Of a DNA stretch of 49,010 nt, positions 2,788 to 49,010 are shown in pieces. Numbering within the stretch: position 1 is the stretch's first letter; every line of letters starts with the position of its first letter. The translations under genes were made by a program, and so were the position numbers. This DNA comes from a virus. The stretch lies in IMG/VR virus record IMGVR_UViG_3300033145_000155; one strand, given 5' to 3'. A model generated the notes under the pieces. The model was not told the origin of the DNA. It saw only the letters and a program-made list of their open reading frames with translations, and made no database searches.

Positions 2788-2799
2788 GGAGATGAGATT

Positions 2800-3579: not shown

Positions 3580-3595
3580 ATATTTGGAGGTAATG

Positions 3596-3796: not shown

Positions 3797-3799
3797 ACA

Positions 3800-5116: not shown

Positions 5117-5277
5117 GACTATTATTATACATACTTTTAATCTTATGCCTTATACTAGGCATATTATTAATCATCAACTGCTTCATACCATTTGGCATAG
5201 GTGTTCTAGTCTTTGGCTATTGTATAATAAAAGTGCTTTATGAAACAGACCGTTTTATAATAAAACGATCTGAATAA
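5113..5277 (+). CDS. small hydrophobic protein (54 aa), uncertain
   Basis: ATGA overlap with the methylase stop. Predicted sequence is MRLLLYILLILCLILGILLIINCFIPFGIGVLVFGYCII... The 3' end consists of a PE25 copy, so it may not be coding. Confidence 0.35.
   Translation: MRLLLYILLILCLILGILLIINCFIPFGIGVLVFGYCIIKVLYETDRFIIKRSE
5247..5271. repeat. PE25 copy 3
   Basis: AGACCGTTT-TATAATA-AAACGATCT, 17 nt upstream of the polymerase ATG. Confidence 0.85.
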
Positions 5278-5288
5278 AAGGAGATAAA

Positions 5289-7799: not shown

Positions 7800-7802
7800 A
7801 AT

Positions 7803-8996: not shown

Positions 8997-9011
8997 ATTG
9001 TTAAACGATCT
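8987..9011. repeat. PE25 copy 4, at a convergent gene junction
   Basis: AGATCGTTA-AATTGTT-AAACGATCT. Overlaps the stop codons of both convergent genes. The 23-mer 8992-9014 is identical to 16783-16805. Confidence 0.85.
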
Positions 9012-12000: not shown

Positions 12001-14710
12001 CATATTTAGTAGCAAACCTTTTTATATAATCAGACACAGGAATATTATATGACCTAGCTTTATCATACCCTTTCATTGTAGATACTCTTTCTCCTGTAGA
12101 CTTAGATATGTCTTGAATTTTAATAGTTACCCTACCATAAGGCTTTAATACCCTAGCAAACTCTTTCATAGCTCCATCATGATAAGCTAGTAATGCATCT
12201 AAGCTTTCAAAACCTCCAAATCTTTTTGCCATTGTAGGTATCTGTTTACCAACAACTAAATATGGAGGATCACTTATTATTGAATTTATAGATTGATCAT
12301 CAAGAGGTATATGTTTAGATACATCAGCCTTTATTGTGTCTTTAGTCTGAGGTACTTTATCCATCTTAATTATAGGTCTTATTTCATTAGGTAGATTTTT
12401 CCATATTTTACCAGAGCTATAATTTACATCTAAGTCTACCTTACCTTTATGCATTAGGTTTATAATATTAGATAATAACTCATCATGGTTCTTACTCCAT
12501 GACTTAATTACTTTCTTAATATTTTTAGATGCTTGAGTTGGGTCTACCCCTGAATATAAGGTATTGCTACTATCATCTTTTATAATATTATCTACTGCAT
12601 CTAAAGTGGACAAATCTAAACGCTCAGTTCGTTTGACATCCAAACGATCTGCATTCCTTGCCCACTCCGCAGCGTCACTAACCGTCTCCTTCCAAACATT
12701 GAAGTCTTCACCTTTATCAAACTTATCTCTAACTTCATCAGCCCTTATAGCTAATTCACTAAGGTGATTCCTAATCTCTTCAATAGGAAGTTCTTCTCCA
12801 TTAAGCCATCTATTAACATCGTTGATTAGCTTACCAGTAAATAAGTCAGGGTCTCCCAAAACATTCTTAATTCGCTCTTTGTAAAGTTTATGTAATGTAT
12901 TAGTCTCTTCAACTGACTTGTCACGGAAAGGTGATTGGTCAGTGGATAATTCAGCAGGTTTAGGAGTACCTGTTTGAGTATCAAGTTCGGTGGTAAGTTC
13001 TTCACCTTTAGGTTTAATTCCTCTTGACCTTTCAAGCTTTTCCCACTGTTCTTTCACAGTCATCTTGTTGATTTCTTTGACTGGATAACCAGCTCGATTA
13101 AGTTCATGTTTTTCATCTTTGGTTAACTTAACTTCTTCTAATATATGCTTAAGTCTTTCTATATCTAACTTACTATAATCTGTTTTACCTTGTAACATAC
13201 TCTTGTCAGTAATTTCCCTATACTTATTAAAGAACATTGATCCCTCTTCTGTAAATACATCTGGAAAGGTATCAATCTTATCAGCAAGCCCACTACTTAA
13301 AATATAGTTATGAATACTTGTCATTATACCTTTTCTTTGATATTCTTTTAATGTATGTAAACCTTCTGTATAGGCTACATTATCATATATAGATACGTCT
13401 GCAGATCCAACTATTTTTTCTCCAATCTTTGCCTGTATTTTAAATTCTTTAGGGTCTTTAGTACTAATTACATTATAAGATATTTCTTCACCTTCAATCT
13501 TTTCTTTCTTTGTTTTCTTCTTTGCCTTCTTTTTTGCCTCAATTTTTTTCTCCTTGATTAAGTCTTGGCCAGTAGTTACTTTTTTCTTAACAGCCTTTTC
13601 TTTCTTAATCTCCTTAACCTTCTTCCCTTTCTCCTTCAAATCACCTTTTACTACACTCTCAGTATCTATATTCTCATTCAGTTTTCTTGCTTCAAGTTCT
13701 GCTTGTACCTTTTCAACATCTAAGACTTTCTGCTGTGCTGCTTTAACTACTTCATCAGGAATCCTATCAATCTCTTTTTGTTTAATAACTATTTTCTCAG
13801 CCTTATCCAAAATAGGCTTAGCGTCCTTTGCATATTGTTCATGACCTCCTTTGTATGTCCTACCCATGACAACTATTCCAACAACATCAGCTATAAAATG
13901 CAAAGCTCCTCTAACATTAGGCATGTATTCAAACATGTCTAACTCAGCCAATGTATGAATAGGCGTTGATGCAGCTGTGTAAGGTGCCATGCCTATCTCA
14001 CCTATAATAGCACTATAGTCTGTAGGTTCTTTCTCTCCACCTTCACCTACAGCTTTCTTACTTAAATACTTACCAAAGGTCATAGGTGATTGTAGTAATC
14101 TATCAAATGGTGCAACTATACTCTCATGCCATCTTCCCGCACCTTTCTCCATTCCTTTACTAGCAGCTTCATAAAGATCAAGGAGAGTGAAATCCTCTGA
14201 CTTGAGTATCCTAGAACCCATCTCCTTTGATGTTTCAACAGCTGCAGACAATGCACCTTGAGCAAATCCAGGAAGGGACATAGCAAAGGTAAGTGTCCCT
14301 CTCACAGCATCATAAGGATTCTTAGCCATTCCCCACAGTTGGTTAAGCGCTTCCATTGCACCACGCTTATCATCATCTGTCATGGTAGGAGGTTGGAATA
14401 AAGTAGAATCAGTAATACCTTCTCCAAAAGCCATCTCACCTACCTTTTCATAGAAAGGCTTTGGTGCAGCCGAGATCATCTGATTCATTATATGAGGATC
14501 TTCATATAAGTCAGAAACAGGTGCAGTCGAAGCTTCGAATTTAGGGACAGGAGCAAGCAACTCAGGTTGCGGCTGCCTGAGGAGGTCAAGCCCGGAAGTT
14601 ACTTGACCTCGGCCTTGACCCTGTCCCTGTTTCAGTAAATCCATTTCAGATTGTTTTGTTATTAAACGATCTGATTGTTCACCCCTTAATAAATCAAGAC
14701 CTGACGGCAT
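9011..14710 (-). CDS. Giant multidomain (polyvalent-type) virion/internal protein, ~1,899 aa, with a GNAT-like module and a DPPY methyltransferase-like module
   Basis: Start set at the MPSGLDLL ATG at 14710 (SD GGAGGAA 8 nt upstream). GNAT-like region HTLKEYQRKGIMTSIHNYIL. MTase-like region SIISDPPYL...RVLKPYGRV...AHSEFLTFEK. It is the last gene of the structural operon, after internal-protein-like genes. Confidence 0.75.
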   Translation of the reverse strand: MPSGLDLLRGEQSDRLITKQSEMDLLKQGQGQGRGQVTSGLDLLRQPQPELLAPVPKFEASTAPVSDLYEDPHIMNQMISAAPKPFYEKVGEMAFGEGITDSTLFQPPTMTDDDKRGAMEALNQLWGMAKNPYDAVRGTLTFAMSLPGFAQGALSAAVETSKEMGSRILKSEDFTLLDLYEAASKGMEKGAGRWHESIVAPFDRLLQSPMTFGKYLSKKAVGEGGEKEPTDYSAIIGEIGMAPYTAASTPIHTLAELDMFEYMPNVRGALHFIADVVGIVVMGRTYKGGHEQYAKDAKPILDKAEKIVIKQKEIDRIPDEVVKAAQQKVLDVEKVQAELEARKLNENIDTESVVKGDLKEKGKKVKEIKKEKAVKKKVTTGQDLIKEKKIEAKKKAKKKTKKEKIEGEEISYNVISTKDPKEFKIQAKIGEKIVGSADVSIYDNVAYTEGLHTLKEYQRKGIMTSIHNYILSSGLADKIDTFPDVFTEEGSMFFNKYREITDKSMLQGKTDYSKLDIERLKHILEEVKLTKDEKHELNRAGYPVKEINKMTVKEQWEKLERSRGIKPKGEELTTELDTQTGTPKPAELSTDQSPFRDKSVEETNTLHKLYKERIKNVLGDPDLFTGKLINDVNRWLNGEELPIEEIRNHLSELAIRADEVRDKFDKGEDFNVWKETVSDAAEWARNADRLDVKRTERLDLSTLDAVDNIIKDDSSNTLYSGVDPTQASKNIKKVIKSWSKNHDELLSNIINLMHKGKVDLDVNYSSGKIWKNLPNEIRPIIKMDKVPQTKDTIKADVSKHIPLDDQSINSIISDPPYLVVGKQIPTMAKRFGGFESLDALLAYHDGAMKEFARVLKPYGRVTIKIQDISKSTGERVSTMKGYDKARSYNIPVSDYIKRFATKYGMRYLGKFVYVNKGSLLVDLKGGEQRIPRIAHSEFLTFEKTKRPLKENVLLDKYGIGLDKADRLIPKRSEPTKLYDITGAAGEGAKQLIEGARKGFDYVRKSQGMKAFRPKEAAQMLRENFNRSFVDRSGNIRGKLLEALGDVGYDIIQRMYLSKGASSLSANMLKQMRKEAYSGMSKGDKIVFDTLALSVRMLDISKYKLPKEFAYPEGYTPAECAARMEIFKYKKVNGVRDYTDAEAYNLYHLKDDGSVGGKVGAYFDWMKKPLKDLLDAELISEQEYDALISHNYRRIKLVEIYDKQVPKLKKTDRTIYSSGVEALSKGKETDIYESSSEIMALEVFNRSYGRILNNRANLSLLEVAKADNTNPFVRIKEDPKDMIPTGWHRILVYEKGKRQELYISPEMSKEWITNNPEISYKMGQVLRYASASPVLRTFATGINWGFALANLPRDVLHTWFAAREFKDGKWTSVYSPHMPVFGLQIGRDLATILTDAALRKGRYEKYIEEGGGMEFLVHQGRLLQRGRHVEGSIDAIYNFLGYFGETSEIMTRLAIRDRVIRNRAKEQGLTFEEANKNPKITQEATFAARDYMDFGQGGGITKAADNAFPYLNAAVVGTRGLFRSFKPGSGTALSSTYKLAQFGALVAGLYIAKNKMHPKSSQALKGNIDEQNNLCLTLGDDFGFEDEHGQMRYPYIKIPIDPGQKFFKTFFEGSVDKWLGNEVDVNRIVDSLKEQSPVGVTELPPTISGTLGYVTNKDFWMNEDIWRKSDKPFSWPESKEEYIPGQTPQTFIDFGEATGMSPERTKYMIEELTTSGTLWSYLLGQGYDASFGDLPKNKKEQHLAMVLSKIPIIKRFFSVTNPYSQYGEKIDEAKEASDIQRWIQNRGLDMRVEGYLYQDNVSRKEVIDYMREFKDKDTYDRLKDRFTFQEKIKGLPNRTFWLRLKGLTTEARAKVYVDRLNSASDEERKELYEELGTVIKAGGVMSPGFREEVGKLRSGQ
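11795..11819. repeat. PE25 copy 5 (intragenic, perfect arms)
   Basis: AGATCGTTT-TGGAATT-AAACGATCT. Read on the minus strand it encodes DRLIPKRS. Confidence 0.85.
12626..12650. repeat. PE25 copy 6 (intragenic)
   Basis: AGTTCGTTT-GACATCC-AAACGATCT. Encodes DRLDVKRT. Confidence 0.75.
14648..14672. repeat. PE25 copy 7 (intragenic, near the 5' end of the giant gene)
   Basis: AGATTGTTT-TGTTATT-AAACGATCT. Encodes DRLITKQS. Confidence 0.8.
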
Positions 14711-20904: not shown

Positions 20905-20919
20905 TTCATCACCATTAAC

Positions 20920-20944
20920 AGATCGTTTAATTATTAAACGATCA
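20920..20944. repeat. PE25 copy 9
   Basis: AGATCGTTT-AATTATT-AAACGATCA. The core GATCGTTTAAT-T-ATTAAACGATC is a perfect 11-bp-arm palindrome. Confidence 0.85.
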
Positions 20945-20954
20945 TTTATAATAA

Positions 20955-22321: not shown

Positions 22322-22344
22322 AATTAGTTACCTCCATTAAGTTC

Positions 22345-22369
22345 AGATTGTTTTATAATAAAACAATCT
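22345..22369. repeat. PE25 copy 10 (perfect palindrome)
   Basis: 22344-22370 is CAGATTGTTTTAT-A-ATAAAACAATCTG, with 13-bp perfect arms. Confidence 0.9.
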
Positions 22370-22377
22370 GGTTATTG

Positions 22378-26695: not shown

Positions 26696-28468
26696 CTATC
26701 TAAATGCCATGTAGTGGATATATGCTGAGCCTGTTTTTGCCCCTGCCTTTGTCCATGTAATTGTGAAACCATCTGCGCCAAGAACAGAGATAACCCCAGA
26801 ATAAATAATACCCGCAGCTTGATTAAGCTGGATACTGTTTACAACAGAATAAGACCATGTGTCCGCTGTCCTATTATGCCAATCGTCTATACTATAAGCG
26901 TTCGATCCGTCATCAAATCCAAACGATGCTTCTGCTGCTACATTAGTCACAGCGAAAAATATTACAAAAGAAGGTTTGAACCCTACTCCTGAAATTTCCT
27001 GTGTTCCTGTGGCATCAGCGGTATCTTTCGTGAATGTTCCAATCTTCATTCCCACTGCCCATTCAGGAGCTATTGCACCAGCGTTCATAAAGAGTTTCAG
27101 GTTAGCTGTACCTTTGGCAAGTCGTGCCAGGACACCTAAGGCCCTGTAATAGATATCGCCGTCAGCATCGGATCCTATGGCAAGATTAGAACCATCATCC
27201 TTAGCAAACCCTATATGTCCTGAACTTGCATAGTCCAGATTACTCAAATTAGCATGGTTAGCAACTTCCACTCCACTGAAAAATTGTGAAGTTACCATTA
27301 CTACCTTTGTAAAACTACCACCTGCCTTTGGAGCTATAATACAACCTATCAGACAACCAAAGTCATTTAGATAAGATGGTACTGTGGGAGCTACTATAGT
27401 ATTCAGTACTGCTTCCGCTAATGAATAACTATCTGTGCCTAAGACCTCATAAACATGCTCATCATCTATATGCTTATAAATATAATGATTGCCATACTTA
27501 TTGTTCCCAATGGTAGCTAATACCCCACTTCCATCATCATAATGAGAACAGTCTATTGTATTTCTATTTACTTCTGTCCAACCACCTAAGCCATCTTTAT
27601 ACAGCATAGTGAATTGAGTCGTATTACTGTTATATGAGGATAAAGGAAATCTATTCAATCCACTATAAACTACTCCAGTTTCCATAGTGAATTTGTCAGT
27701 AGCTAAATAATGTATTGTGGAGCCATTTTCTAGTTCTATTTCTCTTAGTTCTTTTGCTCTTTTATGTAATTTCCTAACTCCATCTTGGAACCTAAATCCG
27801 CTGCTAATGTAGTGAACATTGTTAAGGGCATCCCTCCTCACCTTGCCAATAGGGATGTTTCTCTTGTCGGCTTCATAAGGACTGGATGTTGAAAGAGATA
27901 TTGTTGGAGATCCTGCGTTGTAGTTTAGACAGACATAATAGGTCGTGTCAGCCAACGTAATTGCTATGTTATCTTCTAAATCTTTAGTAACCCTCTCAAG
28001 CTTACCTGTAAGGCTATCAGTAATTCTTAGAAGTGAGACTAAGGCTTCTACCTTGAATGTCCCTGCATTAGTTCCTTCTATTACTTCACCTCCACTAACT
28101 ATCATAGGGCTTTCAGTATAACCTTGCTCTTCTTTATCATTATTTACATATTCTGATACATCTACCCCATCAACAGATTTTCCAGCAGGTAAAATAATAT
28201 TTCCATCATCATCTATTGAAACAGCACTACCTTGAACTTTCCTAGCTCCACCATCTCCACGAACCACTGCATTGTCAGGGATGTTAGCGTCTGAAGAAAC
28301 TCCTTCTCCAATACCTGGCATGTCACCTTTACGCAACACATCTTCATCAAGCACAGGAGCAGCATTAACTTTGATAGGGTCATCTACTTCTATAGACTTA
28401 TCATAATCTCCATCATCGTATTGAATTATATCTGGATTACCACCTATCCTAATTGTTCTTAAAGCCAT
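26696..28468 (-). CDS. fibre/receptor-binding-like structural protein (590 aa)
   Basis: Gly/Asp/Ser/Thr-rich composition predicted to be mostly beta. Call is by size and composition only. Confidence 0.4.
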   Translation of the reverse strand: MALRTIRIGGNPDIIQYDDGDYDKSIEVDDPIKVNAAPVLDEDVLRKGDMPGIGEGVSSDANIPDNAVVRGDGGARKVQGSAVSIDDDGNIILPAGKSVDGVDVSEYVNNDKEEQGYTESPMIVSGGEVIEGTNAGTFKVEALVSLLRITDSLTGKLERVTKDLEDNIAITLADTTYYVCLNYNAGSPTISLSTSSPYEADKRNIPIGKVRRDALNNVHYISSGFRFQDGVRKLHKRAKELREIELENGSTIHYLATDKFTMETGVVYSGLNRFPLSSYNSNTTQFTMLYKDGLGGWTEVNRNTIDCSHYDDGSGVLATIGNNKYGNHYIYKHIDDEHVYEVLGTDSYSLAEAVLNTIVAPTVPSYLNDFGCLIGCIIAPKAGGSFTKVVMVTSQFFSGVEVANHANLSNLDYASSGHIGFAKDDGSNLAIGSDADGDIYYRALGVLARLAKGTANLKLFMNAGAIAPEWAVGMKIGTFTKDTADATGTQEISGVGFKPSFVIFFAVTNVAAEASFGFDDGSNAYSIDDWHNRTADTWSYSVVNSIQLNQAAGIIYSGVISVLGADGFTITWTKAGAKTGSAYIHYMAFR

Positions 28469-28479
28469 TGTTTATCTCC

Positions 28480-28504
28480 AGATCGTTTTATAATTTAACG
28501 ATCT
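28480..28504. repeat. PE25 copy 12
   Basis: AGATCGTTT-TATAATT-TAACGATCT. On the minus strand it runs directly into GGAG, then the ATG at 28468. Confidence 0.85.
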
Positions 28505-28722
28505 TAAATCCCAAGCAATTTATTATTGACAGCCTTTTTAAGTTCATCTACAGTTTTAGTCAAGTTATCTATTTTAGATATTACTATAGTTGAACAAGCA
28601 TGTTGTCGTTCTGCACAAGTTTTATCCTTCACTTTACCATTACTCCCTAAATACTTACCAGTAGTCCCTGAAACAAATGCTATAACTATCCCACTTAATA
28701 CATAAGTAATTGGTTCAGCCAT
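28504..28722 (-). CDS. small membrane protein (72 aa, one N-terminal TM segment), holin-like candidate
   Basis: Start moved to MAEPITYVLSGIVIAFVSG (TAATG overlap with the TerL stop, SD GGAGGG). Confidence 0.5.
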   Translation of the reverse strand: MAEPITYVLSGIVIAFVSGTTGKYLGSNGKVKDKTCAERQHACSTIVISKIDNLTKTVDELKKAVNNKLLGI

Positions 28723-30269
28723 TATATAGCCCTCCACTCCTCAATAGGAGAATCATATTTAAGTTCATTGTATTCAGCCTCTACATCAGCAGTGTTTTCC
28801 TTAGGGCTGAAATACCTCTCTCCCAATTCAAGCATTTCTATTAAATAAGCCTCAGCATCCATTATGTCCCAGAGTGCAGAACGAGGAAACATTAAAAGTT
28901 GCGCTTCTAACTTCTTCATTGTCTGACATGAATCATTGTGATAGATGTAACCGCCACGGTAATAAGGTACAAGTTCCTTAATACGAAGTTCTTTCTTCAT
29001 CCCACCTCTAGTCTTAAGCCAGACTAGTTCATAGAAACTTCCACGCCGAAACATTTCGTTTTTAATAGGTTGTTTAATAAATTCATTCAACGAAGTTTCT
29101 TCAATTCCTAATACCTTTGCATCCAACATTTGAGCCATGCCAAACATAGCATCATAGATTTCATCTGGATACATTTTCTCTGATATGATATCCCTAATGA
29201 ACAATCGAGCAGATGTTAGATCAATCCCTATACCAATTATAGCTGACTCAGCAGAATGGATTTTTACAGTTTTAGCAGGGTCGAGAATAATAACCGTCTC
29301 AATATTATTATCCTGCTGAACTTCAACATCAAGCATTTTAATATCATTCTCGCCAACACCTCTATCCGGTGGTAAGTTATAGTATCTAAAATACTCCTGA
29401 CGAAACGCTGAGTCTTTCGTTGAAATAGGTAAGTTGCGTAACTCACGAAAGAAAACATCTGTCTGGCCAGCATCTACGTGTTGCTGCCATTCAATAGCTA
29501 TTGACTCATCAGACATAAAGTTAGGTGCTGTTGAATGAAAGTCATTGTCACAAGCTTCGAGTCGCACAGAGTCCCACTCAGGTGAGTCGAGCAACTTTTG
29601 CAACACTGAGTCTTCATGTTTTAAAGTATCAATGTAGACTATTTTACAATTCTTAGCCATATCACCTATCCTTGGCAATGCTTTGACTACGTCAGCATAA
29701 AGCCACTCGTACCATCCTTTGCGAATTTCTTCATTGTTAATCTTAACAGGGTCTTCAAGGTCATCTATTACAATGAGTCCTGGACGGTCATTTTTGAACA
29801 GCACACCACGAACCTGCTGACCTGCACCTCTTGGCCAAACTAATGTATCGTAAGCAACCCAAGATTTTTTACTAAACACCTCGTCAAATTCCTTGTTATT
29901 CACATCTCGTTGTTTGAAGTCTCCGAAGAAAGCTTTAATATCACGGTTGGTGACAAGCTCTCTCCGGAGATTTTCAGTTTGCAGACTTGCTGCATCATGA
30001 GACTTATTAATGTAGCATATAAACCCTGTATGCCTAAACAATATCCACCTAGCCATTAATGCAAGAGCAACGATGGAAGTCTTCCCCCAACCACGAGGCG
30101 CTGCAATAGCTACTTTCTGTGCAGGGCCATCTATGAGATCGAAGATTTTTCCATGTACAGAGTCAGCAAAAGGCATTGTGAACCGCTCAGGAAAGAATGT
30201 TAAAGCTGTAGCCTTTGTCGATACAGAACATGTTGAAAGTATTTTTTCGAGCTCTTGATCTTTTTTCAT
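28722..30269 (-). CDS. terL: terminase large subunit
   Basis: Walker A-like AAPRGWGKTS, Walker B LIVIDDLED. 515 aa. Confidence 0.85.
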   Translation of the reverse strand: MKKDQELEKILSTCSVSTKATALTFFPERFTMPFADSVHGKIFDLIDGPAQKVAIAAPRGWGKTSIVALALMARWILFRHTGFICYINKSHDAASLQTENLRRELVTNRDIKAFFGDFKQRDVNNKEFDEVFSKKSWVAYDTLVWPRGAGQQVRGVLFKNDRPGLIVIDDLEDPVKINNEEIRKGWYEWLYADVVKALPRIGDMAKNCKIVYIDTLKHEDSVLQKLLDSPEWDSVRLEACDNDFHSTAPNFMSDESIAIEWQQHVDAGQTDVFFRELRNLPISTKDSAFRQEYFRYYNLPPDRGVGENDIKMLDVEVQQDNNIETVIILDPAKTVKIHSAESAIIGIGIDLTSARLFIRDIISEKMYPDEIYDAMFGMAQMLDAKVLGIEETSLNEFIKQPIKNEMFRRGSFYELVWLKTRGGMKKELRIKELVPYYRGGYIYHNDSCQTMKKLEAQLLMFPRSALWDIMDAEAYLIEMLELGERYFSPKENTADVEAEYNELKYDSPIEEWRAI

Positions 30270-30445: not shown

Positions 30446-32812
30446 TTACCATGATCCTTCGACATACACTGGATACATATATAAATATGTGCCAGCTGAC
30501 CGTTTAACGCTTACTCTTACATATATCATGTATCCATTTTCAAGTTCATATGCGTAATCAGATGTAGTAAATACCCCTGAGCCTGTAAATGTTTGATCTA
30601 TGCCTATCTGTGTCACAGTCCCATTGTACTGCTGTTTATACAACTGTACTAAAGTTGTAGTTGCTTCGTCATCTGTGTTAACAAATATAGTAATAATGTT
30701 AATGATAGCCTCATTTCTTACTGGAATTTCAAAATCCCACACATCATATACTCCATCTCCTGCAACGCCACTACTTCGCACATCACCAGCAGGCCAGGTC
30801 ATTGTTCCATTAGGACTTTCACCATTAAATCTTCCATGAAGTGTAATTACTCTATTATTACTCGCAAACTCAGCACCTGAAAATTTATCTCCAGGAATCA
30901 AATGCCAATTATACCCATTAATATTATACGATGTTGTAAAGCCAGATGACGCCATACAACTTAAAAAAACATCTCTGGTAGTCCCAGCATCATCATACCC
31001 TGTTCCATTCGCACTTGTATTTTCAGCTACAATTCCAATGAAATTGTTATAGTTGTTACCTTCCTCTGAAGCTACTTTAACTCCATAGGTAGCGGCATCC
31101 ACTGAATAACAATCAATCATACCACTCATAAAAACATTTCTTGAGTTCCGCTGATAAAGATAAATCCCGCCTTTTTCTGACTGAGAACGAAGACCAACAA
31201 AGGAATTATCGTAAATTATACCAGGAGATACTCCTTGAAGTAAAAACCCATAAGAATTACTTTGTGAATATAAATTATAGTATCTATTCGCTGCTAACTC
31301 ACCATAGAAAGTTATTCCATAGCAATTTGTATATGCATTATTTGACCTAACATCTTCAACAAGAGATAGATAGGCATTTTTTATCCTAATACCTCCAGCT
31401 CTATTATTATTATCAAAAAAAATACCTCCTAAATATGTATTCTGTGCGCAGTTATCCACTGCACTTCCACCCCAATCAAGCAAATATTCACCTACTGGGA
31501 AACTATTACCAGCTTTAATAATAGATAAACTTTTATTACCAGAAATATACTGGTTCGTTGAAGATATTGCCGTGTTCACAATATAAGTTTTCAACCCAAA
31601 ATAGACTGGTTTCTCTGTAGCTAATGCTTTATAAATTGCATTATAATCGTCAGTAACTCCATCACCTGTTGCTCCCCACCATTCAGGTTTGACCCCACTG
31701 CATGCAGATTCTCCAAAAGCAACACTCCCATCCCCGCTAAACACCTGATAAAGTCCAGCAGAGAAAGGGCCGTTGATGGTGAGAGTTTTTGTGTTAGCGA
31801 CTGTTAGGATTCTTCCTTTAGAAGGTATTAACAAAGTAGTGTTTGCATTGATAGTACAATCATCAACAATTGTAGATGCAGTAGATACTTCTAACTCAAC
31901 ATTAGCAGCACCTATTTTGGTAACAGCTATTTCAAATGTTGAGAACCAAGCAGACTTTACTTTAGTCCCTGAGGCGAAAGTTATAGAACCATCACTTGAG
32001 ATAATTTGATTATCTCCAGCAATCAACTGAGAATTTAATGTAAGAGTCCTTCCAGCATCAATGCTAAGAACTCCTCCATTGAATATCTTAAGTGATAAAT
32101 TACTAGGAATAGTATTATCATAACTTATTACATTCTCATCTGAGACTTCCAAAGTAACTTCTTCATTCTCAACCTGAGCAACTACAGAACGAAGACTATT
32201 AAACCAATCAATCTTTAGTATAGTTCCATCTAAGAAATCATAGTCACCAAGCCCAGCAAAGATTTGATAGTTTCCAGCTTCTATATTTTTAATATTAGAG
32301 AAAACTACTTCTGAATCAACTTGGATGATGTTATTAGGTGAATCCCACTTTAATGTAACATCATTACCCAGTGCACAGGTAGTAGTTATATGAGCTTGAG
32401 AGGTTACTAACAAAGTAACCGAGTCATCATTGGTTAGGTTAATAGCTTTGTAAAGGCTAGGAAACCAAGCTGAGCGAATAACAGATCCATCAGCGAAGTC
32501 TACATCTCCAGCGCCTGTGAAGATTTGACGATCTGGTGCTCTGATATTTCTGGTGTTGATAGTTAGTTGGCCAGAGTTAACTATTGCACCATCTCGCTCG
32601 AAAGCAAGAGTGACGTTGGAAGGGATTGTTAGAGCTGTTACAGTCTGCGGTGAGACAATTTTAATAGTTCGTTCATTAGCACCAACTGCACTTATTGCAT
32701 CGTTGAGAGTTTCGTAAGCACGAGTTACTATTATGTCAGGGAAGAATTCTGCATATGCAGGAGTGACAAATAGTGCTAAAGCTAAAATTATTGAAAGTAT
32801 AAGTTTCTTCAT
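30446..32812 (-). CDS. secretion-signal-bearing beta-helix (pectate-lyase-fold) protein with four N-terminal tandem repeats; tailspike/depolymerase-like
   Basis: Start moved to MKKLILSIILALALFVTPAYA-EF (SD GGAG). Four 86-94-aa repeats each end in a W-F/W motif. The last leads into EWWGATGDGVTDDYNAI, typical of pectate_lyase_3-type domains. Confidence 0.65.
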   Translation of the reverse strand: MKKLILSIILALALFVTPAYAEFFPDIIVTRAYETLNDAISAVGANERTIKIVSPQTVTALTIPSNVTLAFERDGAIVNSGQLTINTRNIRAPDRQIFTGAGDVDFADGSVIRSAWFPSLYKAINLTNDDSVTLLVTSQAHITTTCALGNDVTLKWDSPNNIIQVDSEVVFSNIKNIEAGNYQIFAGLGDYDFLDGTILKIDWFNSLRSVVAQVENEEVTLEVSDENVISYDNTIPSNLSLKIFNGGVLSIDAGRTLTLNSQLIAGDNQIISSDGSITFASGTKVKSAWFSTFEIAVTKIGAANVELEVSTASTIVDDCTINANTTLLIPSKGRILTVANTKTLTINGPFSAGLYQVFSGDGSVAFGESACSGVKPEWWGATGDGVTDDYNAIYKALATEKPVYFGLKTYIVNTAISSTNQYISGNKSLSIIKAGNSFPVGEYLLDWGGSAVDNCAQNTYLGGIFFDNNNRAGGIRIKNAYLSLVEDVRSNNAYTNCYGITFYGELAANRYYNLYSQSNSYGFLLQGVSPGIIYDNSFVGLRSQSEKGGIYLYQRNSRNVFMSGMIDCYSVDAATYGVKVASEEGNNYNNFIGIVAENTSANGTGYDDAGTTRDVFLSCMASSGFTTSYNINGYNWHLIPGDKFSGAEFASNNRVITLHGRFNGESPNGTMTWPAGDVRSSGVAGDGVYDVWDFEIPVRNEAIINIITIFVNTDDEATTTLVQLYKQQYNGTVTQIGIDQTFTGSGVFTTSDYAYELENGYMIYVRVSVKRSAGTYLYMYPVYVEGSW

Positions 32813-32885
32813 TTTTATCTCCTTAGTTTTTCTCTGTTCTAAACAATTCTTGATAAACACCACCTCTGCATATGAGTATTTAGTT

Positions 32886-34532
32886 TCATATCCTTACCTC
32901 ATTAGATTGTTTTATTGTTAAACGATCTTGGGCCTTAGCTAACTTTTCACGCCAAGACTTTGAGTTAATTACTTTAGGTTTCATAGTGTTAAATTGTATA
33001 ACTTGTTTATTGTCAATGTCTTTGACAGTTTCTTTCACATAGGAGAATTTGTCAAGCTCGTATACTTGATTGCTTCTATTGCTGCCATGAACTACCATGT
33101 AAGTGTAAGAAGGTGGAATGGTGTAGACTGTGTCAAATAGGTCACCCATTCTTAAATGAACAGTTTCGTATAAGTCTATTTTTTGTTCTTTCTTTTGCAC
33201 TAAAGCTATGAAAGGGCTTGTTCTAGATCTACCATGAGGAGCGTAGAATGTGTATACTTGGCCATCTGGAGATTGACCAAAGACTTGGTAATTAATGAGG
33301 AAGTTATCTTCCTTCATTATCCTAGCCATGTGCTTCATGTGAGCTATCCAACCAGGAACTACCCAATCATCTATGTCCATGCGAGCCATGATGGGAGTGC
33401 GAGGATAGTTGAGACGCTTGGTAATGTTCTCAGGACATCCCTTGTCAGTCTCCTTAGCCCAATTCTTTGATTGTTCAACTGAGTTTCTCCACTGGGATAA
33501 ATCACCTGAAGTGTATAGAAAGTTGATGTTAAGGCTTCCCCAATCAAGGGATTTGATTCGCTCAGTTGCTTCACAGTCTTCTGGGCCGACAGAGAGATAA
33601 ACAGCAAAGTCTTGGTCAGTTTGAGATTTAAGACTGTTGATAAAGTAATTTTGCATCATAGATAGGTGATTCTCATCTATGACACCTAACTCGTGGAAAG
33701 GTCCAACTTTGTTGTAGATTGCCCTGGACACAACAATGGTTTCTAAGGAAGAAGGATTTGGGCCAACCTTTATTCGATTACGAGGAAACCAAACACAGGA
33801 GAAGCCCCACTTTGATTCAAACAGCTTACGACCTTTTTGAATTAACTCTTCATTGTTTTTAGTCTTTCCATATTTATTATGTCTATCACCTCTATCGTTG
33901 TAAGCAATTAGATTTCTGTCTGTGATGGTGGCTATCTTCCAACCATTTTTTCTAACATTCATTGAGAAGTCAAAGTCCCAAGAACCGATGAAGTATCTTA
34001 TGTCTATGATGTCAGGGATTAAGGCTACTTCTTGACGAATCAGCATTGATGTTCCACCTATGAGGTCAACATCTGCAGTTGGACTAGTTATGGATTCAAT
34101 AGGAGTGCATGTTACCTTGGTGCCGTTGACAGTTCTATGATATACAAGCTGATTATGCATCACATCTACCATACCATAGTCAGGGTTGTTAGTTAAGAAC
34201 TCTAACTCCGCATCCAATGTACCTTCCTTATAATCCATATCATTGTCAGACATGAAGATGAAAGGTGTTTTAGCTGCACGTTTTAAGTTAGTTGCACGTG
34301 GAGGAGCTATGCCACCATTTCCAGAGGAGAAGTAAATGTCTTTTTCAACGAATCCAGATGCAGATTCAATGATTAGGTCTTTCATCACCTTAGATACTTT
34401 TTCTTCTCCTTGAACATGGAGACAGAGATTTAAGGAAAGTGAAGTAGACTTAGGTATGCTAAGCAAGGTTTTGGCTAACCTATCTTCCCTCATCCAAGAT
34501 ACTATAGCTACAGTGATTTGTGGTTTAGTCAT
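32886..34532 (-). CDS. two-domain glycosyltransferase (tandem GT-A/GT2-like modules)
   Basis: N-terminal ITVAIVSW...MSDNDMD (DxD). Second module SLKSQTDQDFAVYL...ARMDIDDW. Confidence 0.65.
   Translation of the reverse strand: MTKPQITVAIVSWMREDRLAKTLLSIPKSTSLSLNLCLHVQGEEKVSKVMKDLIIESASGFVEKDIYFSSGNGGIAPPRATNLKRAAKTPFIFMSDNDMDYKEGTLDAELEFLTNNPDYGMVDVMHNQLVYHRTVNGTKVTCTPIESITSPTADVDLIGGTSMLIRQEVALIPDIIDIRYFIGSWDFDFSMNVRKNGWKIATITDRNLIAYNDRGDRHNKYGKTKNNEELIQKGRKLFESKWGFSCVWFPRNRIKVGPNPSSLETIVVSRAIYNKVGPFHELGVIDENHLSMMQNYFINSLKSQTDQDFAVYLSVGPEDCEATERIKSLDWGSLNINFLYTSGDLSQWRNSVEQSKNWAKETDKGCPENITKRLNYPRTPIMARMDIDDWVVPGWIAHMKHMARIMKEDNFLINYQVFGQSPDGQVYTFYAPHGRSRTSPFIALVQKKEQKIDLYETVHLRMGDLFDTVYTIPPSYTYMVVHGSNRSNQVYELDKFSYVKETVKDIDNKQVIQFNTMKPKVINSKSWREKLAKAQDRLTIKQSNEVRI
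32904..32928. repeat. PE25 copy 13 (inside the 3' end of the GT gene)
   Basis: AGATTGTTT-TATTGTT-AAACGATCT. Encodes DRLTIKQS. Confidence 0.8.
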
Positions 34533-35001
34533 TTGATTTCCTAAATATTGCTATCCTTGCTGATTGATCATCTAGACGATTACAGTTTTTAAGCATGGGT
34601 AATAATCCCTCTGATTGATGATCGTTGTTGAAGTCGTCTATAGCGATATACCGTGAGTGCTTTTGTGCATAGTATAGTTGATTCATCCTTGGTAAAATTC
34701 CGTCTACTAAAGATAGACCAAAGTGGCCTTTTATATCTGCGTCGACATTATTCCATAGACGAAATTCCACGTTAGCAAGATTAAACTTTTTAACTTCTCT
34801 AAGATATATAGAATCTGTTTCATACGAGATTATATCCAAACCTATATTGTTTAACAATATAGTTGACAACCCTGACCCAAATTCAAGGATGGAAGTAATA
34901 TCATACTTTTGTACATAATGATTTATTTTATTCCAACTAGCTATGTCCAGAAACCTAGTAGGAAATGGCCATTCTTTGTATATGTCTTTGTCAGTTTTCA
35001 T
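34525..35001 (-). CDS. class I SAM-dependent methyltransferase-like protein
   Basis: Motif I ILEFGSGLST, acidic post-I ISYETD. Confidence 0.55.
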   Translation of the reverse strand: MKTDKDIYKEWPFPTRFLDIASWNKINHYVQKYDITSILEFGSGLSTILLNNIGLDIISYETDSIYLREVKKFNLANVEFRLWNNVDADIKGHFGLSLVDGILPRMNQLYYAQKHSRYIAIDDFNNDHQSEGLLPMLKNCNRLDDQSARIAIFRKSND

Positions 35002-35026
35002 AGTTAGTTTTATTATAAAACGATCT
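35002..35026. repeat. PE25 copy 14
   Basis: AGTTAGTTT-TATTATA-AAACGATCT. Abuts the ATG at 35001. Confidence 0.75.
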
Positions 35027-35030
35027 TTAT

Positions 35031-35534
35031 TTAATCAAAACTCCATATGTAGATTAGACGGTTTTGAATAGATATTATTTTAACTGGGTTAATATTAGAT
35101 GTCCATTGACTTATGTCGTCCTTTGATATATTGTGGACTTTGTTATCTTTCCATTTATAAGGAAAAGATAAAATAGCATTATAGCTTATCCTTTTTACTT
35201 CTTTAAATGCATCAACTTGATTACTTAAATGTTCCCATACTTGAAGAGCTATAAACAGATCAAACTGCTTATCTTTCACTGGATAAGGAACATTGTTTAA
35301 GTCATGGATTATTTCCTTATGTCCTAAGTTTTTAGGTCTTAATTCTATAATGGTTGAATCATCAGACATATACATGCCTTCTGAGCCAGCTTCGCATATT
35401 GAAGAAGGTTGGATAGTCTTTATTTCATCAATTACTAAAGACATATAATCCCACCTAGCACTATTCCCATGTTGGTAGTAAGGAGAGCCTTTAGCTATTT
35501 CATCGTACTTTGATTTAGTTAATAGATTATCCAT
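35031..35534 (-). CDS. class I SAM-dependent methyltransferase-like protein
   Basis: ICEAGSEG (motif I-like) and FDLFIALQVWEHL (Methyltransf_11/23-like). Confidence 0.55.
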   Translation of the reverse strand: MDNLLTKSKYDEIAKGSPYYQHGNSARWDYMSLVIDEIKTIQPSSICEAGSEGMYMSDDSTIIELRPKNLGHKEIIHDLNNVPYPVKDKQFDLFIALQVWEHLSNQVDAFKEVKRISYNAILSFPYKWKDNKVHNISKDDISQWTSNINPVKIISIQNRLIYIWSFD

Positions 35535-35545: not shown

Positions 35546-35794
35546 CTACTTATCAATCAAAGCATCAGACCCTTCATCTTCTTCAATAGCATCTATTGAA
35601 TGATTAGGGTCAATTTTATCTAGTCCATAATCTATGATCTTGGAAAGAGGACGAGTCCAAGGTATTGAACCTTTATGTTTAAGCTTTAACTTTCCAAGAC
35701 GTGAGCTGATGGTTTCATCAGGGTCACCACCAGCAAAAGTGTTTCCAAGTTGGTCAATGCTTATTAAGATGTTTAATAAATATTTTCCTATCAT
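35546..35794 (-). CDS. hypothetical protein (82 aa)
   Basis: ORF in the operon. Its start overlaps the upstream small TM ORF. Confidence 0.55.
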   Translation of the reverse strand: MIGKYLLNILISIDQLGNTFAGGDPDETISSRLGKLKLKHKGSIPWTRPLSKIIDYGLDKIDPNHSIDAIEEDEGSDALIDK

Positions 35795-35933
35795 TAGTTA
35801 ACCCACCAATTACTAAGTAAATAGCCTCAACAGAGTTTTCCTCAGGGAGAAGCCAACAAAGAGCTCCAGCCAAAACTAAAAAGACTAAAGGACCTAAATT
35901 TGATTTTATAAGTTCAGTGATTACTTCTTTCAT
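35754..35933 (-). CDS. small membrane protein (59 aa, below the ORF-track cutoff), holin candidate
   Basis: SD AGGAGGAG then ATG at 35933. Hydrophobic core LGPLVFLVLAGALCWLL. Confidence 0.45.
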   Translation of the reverse strand: MKEVITELIKSNLGPLVFLVLAGALCWLLPEENSVEAIYLVIGGLTNDRKIFIKHLNKH

Positions 35934-35941: not shown

Positions 35942-36331
35942 CTATTTATAATGAAACTTACTTATCCCTAACTTAAATTTATCTATCCCTTCCATATGCT
36001 TCATAAACAAGGCAAATGCTGTCTTACTATTCCATATTGTATGGTGTCCTTTTGTCATACCTAAAAGTATACAGGCTGTTGTATCTTCTTCTTTGTTGCC
36101 CCAGTGAAATCGAATCAATGTATGCCCCTTAACTACTATTTCAAAGGTATCTCCAAATTTATGGCTTTTAACCCTAACACAGTCATATATTCCTTCTGGA
36201 ATTTGGAATCTTTTAAGGTCATTAGAATCAGGCTCCAGCGTCAAACAAAGAAGTTCACCATCAATAATAAGTATTCCTGGACACCCTAAATTAGATTCAT
36301 TAAACCTTAATATATCAACTATCATTTTCAA
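35942..36331 (-). CDS. DUF5675-like protein with a YkuD-like His...Cys signature; candidate cell-wall hydrolase
   Basis: FHWGNKEEDTTACILLG resembles the L,D-transpeptidase-fold H-x(n)-(S/T)-x-C-I motif. This is an inference. Confidence 0.4.
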   Translation of the reverse strand: MKMIVDILRFNESNLGCPGILIIDGELLCLTLEPDSNDLKRFQIPEGIYDCVRVKSHKFGDTFEIVVKGHTLIRFHWGNKEEDTTACILLGMTKGHHTIWNSKTAFALFMKHMEGIDKFKLGISKFHYK

Positions 36332-36833
36332 CTACCTCTGCTTCAACAATGCCAGATTCCTCAACAGCCTTAGTCCCGCGCTGTTTGAAAGCTTCTAATT
36401 CCTCCTTTGTTAAAGTGTAAGAAGCATTAAGGTTATGGATTTTGGTAGGAGCCCTTAATCCACTGAGTTCCAACGCAACTGTATCTGCCACAGCTTTTTT
36501 ATCCTTAAGTGTTGACTCACCAGAATTATCATCAAAGATCTCATGATAAACATCTAATGCCTTGTTAGTCAACACTCTAATTTTTTCTGAAACTTTTTTC
36601 GCTTCCTCATCACGGTCAAGGCGAATCTCGGAAAGTTTACGTTCACCAAGCTCGGAGTTAAGGGTGTTGGAAACTGTCTGGGGATGGATATTTAAAATCT
36701 CTGCTATCTCTACATTCTTATACCCAAGCCCTTGAATTTCATAGGTTTTACGTTCACCACTTTCTGCACGTCGCTTGTCTGGCACAAGAAAGTCAAACCC
36801 ATAAAGCCCCTGTCTAGTCTCCACACCTTCCAT
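36315..36833 (-). CDS. HTH protein (sigma-70 region 4/LuxR-like helix-turn-helix), possibly the terminase small subunit
   Basis: GYKNVEIAEILNIHPQTVSNTL. It is the second gene of the late operon. Confidence 0.4.
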   Translation of the reverse strand: MEGVETRQGLYGFDFLVPDKRRAESGERKTYEIQGLGYKNVEIAEILNIHPQTVSNTLNSELGERKLSEIRLDRDEEAKKVSEKIRVLTNKALDVYHEIFDDNSGESTLKDKKAVADTVALELSGLRAPTKIHNLNASYTLTKEELEAFKQRGTKAVEESGIVEAEVVENDS

Positions 36834-37045: not shown

Positions 37046-37070
37046 AGACCGTTTATTTATTAAACGATCT
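37046..37070. repeat. PE25 copy 15 (in the divergent control region)
   Basis: AGACCGTTT-ATTTATT-AAACGATCT, about 26 nt upstream of the late -35 box. Confidence 0.8.
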
Positions 37071-37215
37071 ATACTTAACCGTACATGTTGGGACATTTTA
37101 TAAATCTTCAGACAAAATGTGAGAGATGTAACCCCCGCGCTATTACGTCTAATTTCCCCCATTGGATTGAACTGTTAATAAAATCAATGGGTTACGTGCT
37201 AGGTAAAAATAAACA

Positions 37216-39406: not shown

Positions 39407-39629
39407 GATATTTATTGTAGCAGGTAACTATAAACAAACGAAAGAATATGCTATATGTAAAGGTATTAAATATAGTAGGTTCGTCTATGTTAATGAAATG
39501 TATAAGATGCAAGGTATAAGAAAAGGAAAGTTAATATTTACTGGATCATGGGATAGAAGACCCAATTTTAATATAGATGAAATTTTACTATATGCTAAGT
39601 ATATGCAATTTAACATTGTATATGATTAA
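39399..39629 (+). CDS. hypothetical protein (76 aa)
   Basis: Overlapping start, in the operon. Confidence 0.65.
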   Translation: MSKIFIVAGNYKQTKEYAICKGIKYSRFVYVNEMYKMQGIRKGKLIFTGSWDRRPNFNIDEILLYAKYMQFNIVYD

Positions 39630-39653
39630 GTTCGTTTTATAATAAAACAATCT
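39629..39653. repeat. PE25 copy 17
   Basis: AGTTCGTTT-TATAATA-AAACAATCT then GGAGG. Identical 31-mer to the copy at 2761. Confidence 0.85.
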
Positions 39654-39664
39654 GGAGGTGAAAG

Positions 39665-48803: not shown

Positions 48804-49010
48804 ATGGCCTACGATTACAAAGAAGAACTAAAAAAGGTAAAGGAATACTATGAAGGTGACCCTTTACAAAAACGATTCAGTGCATTAGTAACTGGGGAAA
48901 CCAACGCAGGTAAAACTTACATGCTAAGGACTGCTCGCAAACCTGTTCACATAGATTCCTTCGATCCTGGTGGTACTAAATGTCTCAGAGATTTAATTGA
49001 AAGCGGTGAT
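48804..49010 (+). CDS. 5' part of the Sak4-like ATPase gene; continues at position 115 of the window after the 114-nt overlap
   Basis: SD GGAGGAG, ATG at 48804. In frame across the junction. Confidence 0.7.
   Translation, partial: MAYDYKEELKKVKEYYEGDPLQKRFSALVTGETNAGKTYMLRTARKPVHIDSFDPGGTKCLRDLIESGD
48897..49010. repeat. Terminal overlap, identical to 1-114
   Basis: Direct comparison. Confidence 0.95.

Follow-up and report, generated by a model that had tools for sequence, protein, structure and literature searches.

A predicted glycosyltransferase–methyltransferase cassette and a putatively exported depolymerase between the terminase genes of an environmental phage

Known viral glycosylation sets and the cassette between TerS and TerL

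Mycobacteriophage Corndog carries a virion glycosylation operon, gp35-38, that encodes an O-methyltransferase, two glycosyltransferases and a GlcNAc-transferase (PMC4351075). In the chlorovirus PBCV-1, protein A064R combines two rhamnosyltransferase domains with a methyltransferase domain, A061L is a stand-alone methyltransferase, and di-O-methylated rhamnose caps the capsid glycan (PMC9614988). Here we describe a locus of related content in a viral DNA of 49,010 nucleotides (IMG/VR record IMGVR_UViG_3300033145_000155; "the window" below means this whole stretch), where four minus-strand genes lie between a gene for a TerS-like protein and the terminase gene TerL. They encode two small methyltransferase-like proteins (MT1 and MT2), a 548-residue glycosyltransferase (GT548) and a beta-helix protein (BH). 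The reading we favour, tentatively and at somewhat below an even chance, is that GT548, MT1 and MT2 together make a short glycan with methylated sugars and attach it to a protein encoded by the phage, probably one of the virion, and that BH is a separately regulated depolymerase exported by the Sec pathway. The four open reading frames (ORFs), listed in an earlier note on this DNA, are all present. Their positions and parts, together with the two copies of a promoter-like motif (PE25) that lie among them, are as follows.

35031–35534, minus: MT1, small soluble class-I methyltransferase-like protein (Pfam Methyltransf_11)
35007–35027, minus: PE25 copy just upstream of the MT2 start, exact match to AAGATCGTTTWAYAATAAAAC
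34525–35001, minus: MT2, small soluble class-I S-adenosylmethionine (SAM) methyltransferase with an O-methyltransferase-like fold (AlphaFold2 and Foldseek)
32886–34532, minus: GT548, soluble, two GT-A domains, predicted to be bifunctional (Pfam matches of homologs, AlphaFold2, Foldseek)
33798–34532, minus: GT548 domain 1, GT2-like GT-A, residues 1 to about 245, with the DxD motif D96-N-D98 at 34239–34247
32973–33749, minus: GT548 domain 2, PF11316-like GT-A, residues about 262–520, with the DxDD motif D386-I-D388-D389 at 33366–33377
32940–32957, minus: C-terminal tail motif S-W-R-E-K-L of GT548, following a polybasic low-confidence linker
32909–32929, minus: PE25 copy in the 3' end of the GT548 gene, upstream of the BH gene, exact match
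30446–32812, minus: BH, 788 residues, depolymerase-like, modular, predicted to be exported by Sec (identical to database protein P0120)
32750–32812, minus: BH signal peptide, residues 1–21, cleavage AYA/EF, the sole hydrophobic segment of BH
31667–32749, minus: four tandem BH repeats of about 90 residues each, forming the conserved N-terminal domain (repeat self-comparison)
30449–31666, minus: variable C-terminal pectate-lyase-like beta-helix module of BH, putative glycanase (PF12708, phi29 gp12)

According to the reading we favour, the region would be the window phage's copy of a variable glycan cassette in the late packaging/lysis operon, made of two separable parts. GT548, MT1 and MT2 would act as soluble cytoplasmic enzymes; the two independent GT-A sites of GT548 would most likely add two sugars or linkages successively from nucleotide sugars, and MT1 and MT2 would probably O-methylate the product to give a short methyl-capped glycan, whose acceptor would be a phage-encoded protein, most likely on the virion. 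BH would be exported by Sec with cleavage of its signal peptide, and, working from the periplasm and again once the cell has lysed, would cut O-antigen, capsule or exopolysaccharide of the host, without being carried on the virion. The gene set, the folds, the motifs, the signal peptide, the mosaic distribution and the confinement of GT548 to phage contigs come from the sequences and models themselves, whereas we infer which sugars are donated, that they are methylated, what the acceptor is, and where and to what end BH acts.

Like the cassette, the Corndog-type operon holds soluble glycosyltransferase and O-methyltransferase genes that lie in the head/packaging block and do not encode virion components (PMC4351075), and a homolog of MT1 in the viral contig L046 occupies the same portal-to-protease position. 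Unlike that operon, with which it has no detectable sequence homology, the window has its cassette between TerS and TerL beside lysis genes, its glycosyltransferase is a single two-domain protein, its host is probably Gram-negative, and glycosylation is here predicted from the genes. The PBCV-1 pair A064R/A061L likewise offers two glycosyltransferase sites and two methyltransferases, soluble and virus-encoded, and makes, on the capsid protein, a terminal disaccharide with a methyl cap; the window differs in having one protein with two glycosyltransferase domains plus two separate methyltransferases, all from other sequence families, and the parallel is one of architecture only. If the glycosyltransferase and methyltransferases do decorate virions, glycosylation of virions by the virus's own enzymes would no longer be limited to actinobacteriophages and giant viruses but would reach a widespread environmental clade of podophages, whose hosts are probably Gram-negative. 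The cassette, with four activities, is a simple genetic unit that could be reconstituted.

GT548, the methyltransferases and their probable target

The earlier note had recognised two GT-A modules with DxD motifs in the 548-residue protein, a claim borne out by Pfam matches of the homologs, by conservation of the DxD residues and by structural matches to two-domain enzymes. The window protein itself stays below the Pfam cut-offs (PF13641, 17.8 versus 27; PF11316, 19.4 versus 23). Among its homologs, at E ≤ 1e-3, PF00535 is matched in 17 of 29 and PF11316 in 23 of 29, and domain 1 corresponds to PF00535 or PF13641. D96-N97-D98 and D386/D388/D389 are invariant or nearly so across 29 aligned sequences, in which D186 and D188 of domain 1 and R384 of domain 2 are invariant as well. 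Foldseek searches with the AlphaFold2 model (pLDDT 86; pTM 0.59, at which the mutual orientation of the domains is unreliable) returned hundreds of GT-A matches, with two-GT-A-domain enzymes at the top, namely K4CP (7e-16), LARGE1, PmHS2, mimivirus R699 and COLGALT1, and with single-domain matches, for domain 1, such as SpsA (TM 0.6 relative to the target) and KfiA. K4CP of Escherichia coli K4, PmHS2 of Pasteurella and human LARGE1 share with GT548 the tandem GT-A domains, each with a DxD motif; they are only 10–13% identical to it with whole-protein TM values of 0.2–0.33, and the domain folds alone match. In a viral structure library the model found its counterparts in giant viruses and uncultured phages, among GT-A proteins with several domains. 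No match at 1e-3 came from a tblastn search of 50,697 phage records, and a single-sequence search of the PDB was empty or marginal. No transmembrane segment was found in GT548, MT1 or MT2.

We found 119 homologs of GT548, about 95 of them with the same two-domain build and all on contigs of at most 53 kb. The GT548 profile, run against 185,579 species genomes of GTDB, hit a single 4-kb contig in a metagenome-assembled genome, which is probably mis-binned. As judged from these searches, GT548 is restricted to phages. Its identity among relatives (46–96%) roughly follows the divergence of TerL and TerS, and it is kept in loci that lack BH or the methyltransferases; by this comparison of loci GT548 is the conserved core of the cassette.

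The interval between TerS and TerL was compared in relatives of the window phage, of which IMG/VR holds dozens with TerL 64–98% identical. Across 15 independent loci with both genes it measures 2.4–8.1 kb and runs in the order TerS, small lysis genes, methyltransferase/GT2/sugar-nucleotide genes, large glycosyltransferase, exported BH, TerL. A second set of 35 loci was recovered with the GT548 profile, and 33 of these could be assessed. The glycosyltransferase gene is followed by BH in 23 (with a gap of at most about 110 nt in 20 of the 23), directly by TerL in at least 8 and by other genes in 2. It is preceded by MT2 in 10 loci and by MT1 in 2; wherever either methyltransferase occurs, it lies directly upstream of GT548. 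None of the 35 loci has both, a combination present only in the window. BH without any glycosyltransferase was found in two loci, L021 and L024.

The nearest relative of the island, L043, is 93.6% identical in DNA over MT2 and GT548 (GT548 protein, 96%), and differs from the window by an SLT transglycosylase gene in place of DUF5675, by two extra small genes before BH and by a different BH C-terminus. The catalytic module of BH is swapped even beside a 96%-identical GT548. This contrast between a swapped catalytic half and a conserved glycosyltransferase suggests that BH tracks the strain-variable polysaccharide of the host, whereas GT548 serves an acceptor that is conserved and, for that reason, probably intrinsic to the phage. 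A phage protein is favoured as the target of GT548 because the enzyme is phage-restricted, is retained without BH or methyltransferases, and stays conserved while the BH module is exchanged. Virus-autonomous glycosylation also fits, because relatives carry nucleotide-sugar genes, glycan clusters recur in head/packaging modules, and the set of two glycosyltransferase sites and two methyltransferases matches that of PBCV-1 A064R plus A061L. Of the three functions proposed earlier, namely virion glycosylation with methylated sugars, remodelling of host surface polysaccharide, and a combined synthesise-and-cleave system, these data favour the first, with a phage or virion protein as the substrate.

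The nucleotide-sugar genes are of two kinds: in L038 (1070–2442) a CTP_transf_like nucleotidyltransferase and a 310-residue NAD epimerase lie just upstream of TerS, and in L016 (7552–8364) a 270-residue epimerase/dehydratase lies inside the island. Contig L046, an unrelated 67-kb viral contig, has a glycan cluster (29–12090) between TerL and the head maturation protease. Its order is an intein-containing TerL, a glycosyltransferase, an endolysin, a 538-residue protein, three methyltransferases (one of them the MT1 homolog), two GT2 enzymes, a polysaccharide deacetylase, a 711-residue GT2 protein and the head maturation protease, which brings the cluster to three methyltransferases, four glycosyltransferases and one polysaccharide deacetylase. 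A further observation concerns L069 (10126–11112) and L070, in which the glycosyltransferase lacks the W-R tail described below, BH is absent and four ORFs follow the glycosyltransferase gene. One of these encodes 328 residues with Thr/Pro-rich repeats (APTTLPPTTLAPTTLVPTT), a mucin-like stretch that, by its composition, would be a natural O-glycosylation target. In some relatives GT548 is replaced by fusions of B12-binding radical-SAM, GT2 and PF11316 domains (L040, 7137–9965; L041, 7838–9973). About 20 B12-binding radical-SAM/GT2 fusions of 711–942 residues are in the database, and their domain composition suggests a coupling of glycosyl transfer to radical (C-)methylation.

Two class-I methyltransferases had also been called in the earlier note. 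For MT2 this holds. Although MT2 has no Pfam match, and a single-sequence PDB search with it was empty or marginal, its AlphaFold2 model (pLDDT 93.5) retrieves class-I SAM methyltransferases in Foldseek, O-methyltransferases and TehB at 5e-6, and the best matches are small cation-dependent O-methyltransferases of the CCoAOMT type (3ntv, 3tfw; TM 0.72–0.75). The conserved motifs of MT2 are LEFGSGxST, SYETD and SLVDG, with E40-F-G42-x-G44 (the glycine-rich SAM loop) and S59-Y-E61-T (the acidic residue at the end of beta-2) invariant. As predicted by this model, MT2 has a class-I methyltransferase fold. Its stop codon overlaps the start of GT548 by 8 nt. For MT1 the call is supported, not proven, by sequence matching: Methyltransf_11 is found at 24.2 bits (cut-off 21.2) over residues 76–116 only, a 41-residue core, and motif I is degenerate (C-E-A-G-S-E-G). 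Searches of the PDB with the single MT1 sequence gave no match and with a four-sequence profile only a spurious one, and comparisons of MT1 with MT2 and with a class-I methyltransferase from a relative detected no similarity. MT1 is absent from L043 as a clean single-gene indel of about 500 bp, while in L025 and L045 a homolog of MT1 immediately precedes GT548. Taken over the cassette, support for the enzymatic folds is good in GT548 and MT2, and moderate in MT1 and in the catalytic part of BH.

Phage enzymes of the GT-A fold also glycosylate 5hmC and 5hmU in DNA and are sometimes encoded near terminase and ParB-like genes (bioRxiv 10.1101/2023.12.21.572611). Hypermodification of the phage DNA, in which GT548 and the methyltransferases would act on hydroxymethylated bases, would moreover suit the presence in this genome of genes for a dCMP deaminase and a ParB-fused DNA methylase. 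However, Pfam scans of the larger ORFs revealed no thymidylate-synthase-like hydroxymethylase, no TET-like dioxygenase or 5mYOX enzyme and no C5 DNA methyltransferase; neither was a nucleotide-sugar gene found among these ORFs. MT2 resembles small-molecule and sugar O-methyltransferases, not DNA methyltransferases, and the additional genes of relatives, for epimerases, sulfotransferase-like proteins and further GT2 enzymes, are of kinds usual in glycan synthesis. We consider this explanation highly improbable and rejected it, since genes of the precursor pathway were not found in the larger ORFs scanned.

The structural matches of GT548 are open to another interpretation, the remodelling of host envelope glycans by synthesis and cleavage, which would hide the receptor and thereby lead to superinfection exclusion and to less progeny lost to debris. 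In such a scheme GT548 would dock on the inner membrane by its basic tail and elongate lipid-linked O-antigen, capsule or core with a disaccharide or polymer, a methyl cap added by MT1/MT2 would end the chain, and exported BH would trim the native polymer in the periplasm. Its elements have precedents. Methyl caps added by WbdD terminate chains in ABC-transporter-dependent O-antigen synthesis, and K4CP, PmHS2 and LARGE1, the top Foldseek matches, are membrane-associated two-domain polymerases. Periplasmic tailspike-like depolymerases are known in polysaccharide clusters, WceF being an example (PMC7949094). The polybasic tail with its conserved Trp (motif in 31 of 33 homologs) could bind acidic phospholipid, the glycosyltransferase gene stands directly upstream of BH in 23 of the 33 loci with the genes overlapping or closely spaced, and the lysis genes are neighbours.

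Host glycans and the catalytic module of BH, on the other hand, are hypervariable, unlike GT548, which is conserved and occurs only in phages. The obligate pairing of synthesis with cleavage that had been suggested is weakened by the loci with GT548 and no BH (at least 8 of 33) and by the two with BH and no glycosyltransferase. No flippase, polymerase or transporter partner accompanies the cassette, no glycan export or primer genes were found in genome scans, and the enzymes have no transmembrane segment. Known serotype conversion relies on gtrABC and on the O-antigen acetylases and polymerases of P22, SfV, D3 and epsilon15, that is, on membrane proteins encoded near the attachment sites of temperate phages. 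The window genes resemble these modules in being phage genes that could alter surface glycans, but their products lack membrane segments of the GtrA, GtrB, GtrC or Wzy type, they occupy a late-operon site, and no integrase was found in Pfam scans of the larger ORFs. Since the genome is complete and without an integrase among these ORFs, surface conversion late in infection would be of little benefit to a virulent phage. We regard envelope remodelling as the main rival of the reading we favour, though on the improbable side.

Several findings nevertheless weigh against glycosylation of a virion protein, and the confidence placed in it is limited by them. No acceptor was identified: the Ser/Thr-rich tails on virion proteins that the earlier note had proposed to look for are not there, nor are mucin-like ones, on the virion proteins of the window. 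Structurally, GT548 comes closest to polymerases that act at a membrane and whose acceptors are lipid-linked or polysaccharides; its polybasic, Trp-containing tail would suit peripheral membrane binding; and the neighbours of the cassette, lysis genes and an exported glycanase, are all directed at the envelope. The resemblance to the mycobacteriophage and chlorovirus sets is one of architecture with no sequence homology, the fold of MT1 is based on a 41-residue Pfam match, the relative placement of the two GT548 domains in the model is unreliable, and PE25 precedes genes on both strands, so that it does not fix when the cassette is expressed.

The tail of GT548 merits separate description. It carries 13 Lys and Arg versus 6 Asp and Glu, and a motif [S/T/N/D]-W-[R/K]-x-[K/R]-[ILMV] recurs in 31 of 33 complete glycosyltransferase homologs, radical-SAM fusions included. 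The motif appears to be selected at the protein level because its arginine codons vary synonymously; a role as a DNA element of the BH promoter was ruled out, both arginine and lysine codons varying in this way. We also considered that the motif might be tied to BH, since in the first 13 loci it was found in 10 of 10 cases with BH next in line versus 0 of 3 without. This association was lost in 35 further loci, in which the tail is also present where TerL directly follows the glycosyltransferase gene, and the idea that BH is the acceptor was down-weighted as a result. TerL itself ends in [D/N]-W-R-x-x (28722–28739), and so do nearly all of the TerL proteins examined in the clade, that of a Desulfofustis phage with 46% identity among them. 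The C-termini of TerL proteins dock on the portal in several phages. It is conceivable that the GT548 tail and the TerL C-terminus share a docking site, although the resemblance, which may be chance, spans three residues and was noticed after the fact.

The beta-helix protein and its export signal

The ORF of BH opens at a GTG and would encode 805 residues, the length given in the earlier note. An ATG at 32812 has AAGGAG 7 nt upstream and is almost certainly the true start, which gives a protein of 788 residues. The signal peptide noted before stands. Its sequence is MKKLILSIILALALFVTPAYA, with cleavage predicted before EFF, and it consists of a positively charged start, a hydrophobic core of 12–14 residues and A-x-A followed by E. 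The -3/-1 rule of signal peptidase I holds in at least 103 of 120 BH homologs while the sequence itself drifts; among the 103, the residue at -1 is Ala in 100, that at -3 is small, and that at +1 is Glu in 91. The remaining 17 homologs show register shifts or truncated gene calls. The window protein lacks, after the cleavage site (residues 22–31, about 32722–32749), a nine-residue SPNGIWTDS that is present in almost all of the 120 homologs; the deletion is in frame and falls where the family is most conserved.

The mature protein begins with the four repeats, which are 25–36% identical to one another. This N-terminal domain was found in 263 representative clusters at E ≤ 1e-30, always at the N-terminus and never in cultured phages; a tblastn search of the phage records with BH gave only a generic pectin-lyase match. 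The C-terminal module varies among relatives (Beta_helix/NosD, pectate-lyase-like, GH43, GH32 or GH130). In the window copy direct evidence for the beta-helix, claimed earlier for the protein as a whole, covers about 100 residues (about 380–480), where PF12708 scores 26.2 bits (cut-off 27) and there is a match at 3e-6 to the phi29 gp12 appendage; homologs clearly match Beta_helix and NosD. A T9SS sorting domain was searched for in NCBIfam without a match. The BH gene has its own upstream PE25 copy, as it does in most relatives. From these sequence features, BH is read as a Sec-exported depolymerase, not a tailspike.

A tailspike would be the customary assignment. The N-terminal domain would then anchor the protein to the virion, the C-terminus would be a receptor-binding depolymerase, and the hydrophobic N-terminus would not be an export signal. 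Tailspikes classically pair a constant N-terminus with a swapped C-terminus, some BH homologs (though not the window copy) end in Phage_depo_C, K1-lyase_C or Peptidase_S74, and the phi29 gp12 match is to an appendage. Virions of tailed phages, however, assemble in the cytoplasm, and the features of a signal peptidase I substrate are kept in at least 103 of the 120 homologs, which places a Sec-type signal where a tailspike would have its anchor. In addition, BH is missing from many relatives, and p590, the product of a gene downstream of TerL, is a better candidate for the tail fibre. We judge the tailspike assignment quite unlikely.

An exported repeat-containing beta-helix protein encoded immediately downstream of a glycosyltransferase gene may itself be the glycosylated partner, as in Aah/AIDA-I and TibC/TibA; GT548 and the methyltransferases would then modify BH in the cytoplasm before Sec export. 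An operon of a glycosyltransferase with an exported beta-helical substrate is on record (PMC3835316), and the closest complete relative has a cytidylyl/adenylyl-transferase-like gene and an epimerase. Nevertheless, in at least 8 loci TerL directly follows a GT548 gene with intact tail and BH is missing, L021 and L024 have BH but no glycosyltransferase, the link between tail and BH (10 of 10 versus 0 of 3) vanished in the larger set, and GT548 is unrelated to the BAHT and HMW1C families. Modification of BH by GT548 is thus very unlikely to be the purpose of the cassette.

The reading of BH as an exported depolymerase has partial precedents. WceF of Pantoea is an exported right-handed beta-helix glycanase encoded beside glycan-synthesis genes (PMC7949094); it differs in being bacterial and in using a Tat signal, whereas BH is phage-encoded and has a Sec-type signal, a repeat domain of about 360 residues and a swappable catalytic module. 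Lys44 of the Oenococcus phage fOg44 and the SAR endolysins are phage lytic enzymes with genuine signal peptides, exported before lysis (PMC6116005). These enzymes cleave peptidoglycan, whereas BH resembles polysaccharide depolymerases, and the window has a separate putative endolysin, the DUF5675 protein. A review of phage enzymes that breach host barriers describes signal peptides only for endolysins (Lys44, SAR endolysins), and depolymerases as virion-borne or free (PMC6116005). Glycan synthesis by phages and phage depolymerases are already known in kind; as far as the sequences indicate, the least expected feature of the locus is the conserved export signal on a depolymerase family. If BH is truly exported, it would represent a second delivery route for phage depolymerases besides the virion, bearing on escape from capsule or biofilm matrices and on the avoidance of re-adsorption to debris. 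The modules of the family (beta-helix lyases, GH43, GH32, GH130) on a constant secretion-competent scaffold are a potential library of polysaccharide-degrading enzymes.

A more far-reaching version, which we consider unlikely, would assign two linked innovations to the SU10-like clade, the exported depolymerase family and a phage-restricted glycosyltransferase that docks through its TerL-like tail on the procapsid or portal. The depolymerases, at least 260 clusters (50% identity) of Sec-exported proteins that swap catalytic cassettes, would act inside the envelope of the infected cell and not on the virion, as a "receptor-destroying, exit-clearing" class of enzymes not described for tailed phages. 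The [S/D]-W-R tail of GT548 would copy the [D/N]-W-R end of TerL, and the methylated glycan would be laid down during head assembly.

Mosaic interval, promoter-like motif and genome context

From the TerS-like gene, the minus-strand order is DUF5675, a 59-residue transmembrane protein, an 82-residue protein, MT1, MT2, GT548, BH and TerL. The genes that flank the four described above are the following.

36315–36833, minus: TerS-like helix-turn-helix (HTH) protein, 34% identical (8e-20) to the annotated TerS of a Desulfofustis phage
35942–36331, minus: DUF5675 protein in the endolysin slot (Pfam DUF5675, 1e-24)
35754–35933, minus: 59-residue protein with one transmembrane segment, putatively holin-like (hydrophobicity KD19 1.91)
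35546–35794, minus: 82-residue protein, phrog_3342, conserved with L043
28722–30269, minus: TerL, downstream border of the variable interval (phrog_38, 1e-59; 73–98% identical in relatives)

Of the terminase calls made earlier, TerL is confirmed by its match, and the TerS-like call is supported by homology. The TerS-like gene, whose HTH matches in Pfam are weak, forms the upstream border of the variable interval. The 59-residue protein is conserved with L043 at the DNA level. DUF5675 has been described as a C82-like peptidase lysin in a 2026 preprint; a single-sequence PDB search with the window protein was empty or marginal. In L043 it is replaced by the SLT gene with conserved flanks, and elsewhere by Peptidase_M15_4, SLT or LAS-like genes. 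Besides these endolysin variants, the interval in relatives may contain GT2 enzymes, a class-I methyltransferase of 300 residues, a sulfotransferase-like protein, NAD-dependent epimerase/dehydratases and a protein that weakly matches the Pfam family "rhamnosyl O-methyltransferase/CmcI".

The earlier note regarded the block as an accessory insertion on the ground that TerS and TerL are normally adjacent. Adjacency was found in distant relatives only, a locus designated L037 and the Desulfofustis phage (listed as L001), whose annotated TerS adjoins its TerL (TerL 44–46% identical to that of the window). The content of the interval does vary, as an accessory block would, but every close relative examined, among about 40 related metagenomic phages, fills it with lysis genes and some combination of glycosyltransferase, methyltransferase and exported depolymerase genes. 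Constant presence in relatives had been named as an argument against the insertion, and this is in part what we see, GT548 behaving as a conserved phage gene. Judged from these loci, the TerS–TerL interval is a clade-wide hot spot and not a private insertion.

The promoter-like motif PE25 (AAGATCGTTTWAYAATAAAAC) has 24 matches in the window versus 0.03 expected. Within this motif the core, GTTTTATAATAAAAC, forms a palindrome that includes a perfect TATAAT. The motif occurs at about 17 sites and precedes genes on both strands; example sites are given below.

1007–1033, 2762–2788, 5246–5272, 8992–9012, 20919–20945 and 22344–22370: PE25
28479–28505, 32909–32929, 35007–35027, 37051–37071 and 39628–39654: PE25

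The copies in the island had been placed near 35002 and 32904, and are located at 35007–35027 and 32909–32929. Both coincide with mosaic breakpoints relative to L043, and the locus may serve as an example of mosaic evolution in which cassettes are shuffled at a fixed hot spot with a repeated promoter-like motif as boundary. The copy at 32909–32929 is also coding and is read as QDRLTIKQ within GT548. The extension ...DRLxxKQ(S/T)G also closes many of the GT548 homologs, by which a regulatory DNA motif appears to be read through as a protein tail.

The window ends in a 114-bp exact direct repeat (1–114 and 48897–49010), which indicates a complete phage genome, assembled as a circle, of about 48.9 kb. 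Replication genes are on the plus strand (a family-A DNA polymerase with a UDG-like domain, a DUF3987 primase, a ligase, a dCMP deaminase and a ParB-fused N6/N4 DNA methylase), and the packaging, lysis and structural genes form one long minus-strand operon. The portal and capsid proteins of relatives belong to the Pfam families SU10_portal and SU10_MCP, and the window phage is apparently a virulent SU10-like podophage. The nearest GenBank phage is Desulfofustis phage LS06-2018-MD01 (TerL 46% and portal 42% identical). Cultured relatives by portal similarity all have Gram-negative hosts, and going by them the host of the window phage is probably Gram-negative. A TerL scan of GTDB genomes found no match and no prophage copy, and megablast of the whole island against phage records gave no match.

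Two further genes lie next to TerL. Between TerL and the portal gene, p590 (26696–28468) has its first 50–100 residues conserved in relatives with the remainder swapped, a pattern by which it is probably a tail fibre. A 77-residue protein with an N-terminal transmembrane segment (28504–28737) overlaps the TerL stop.

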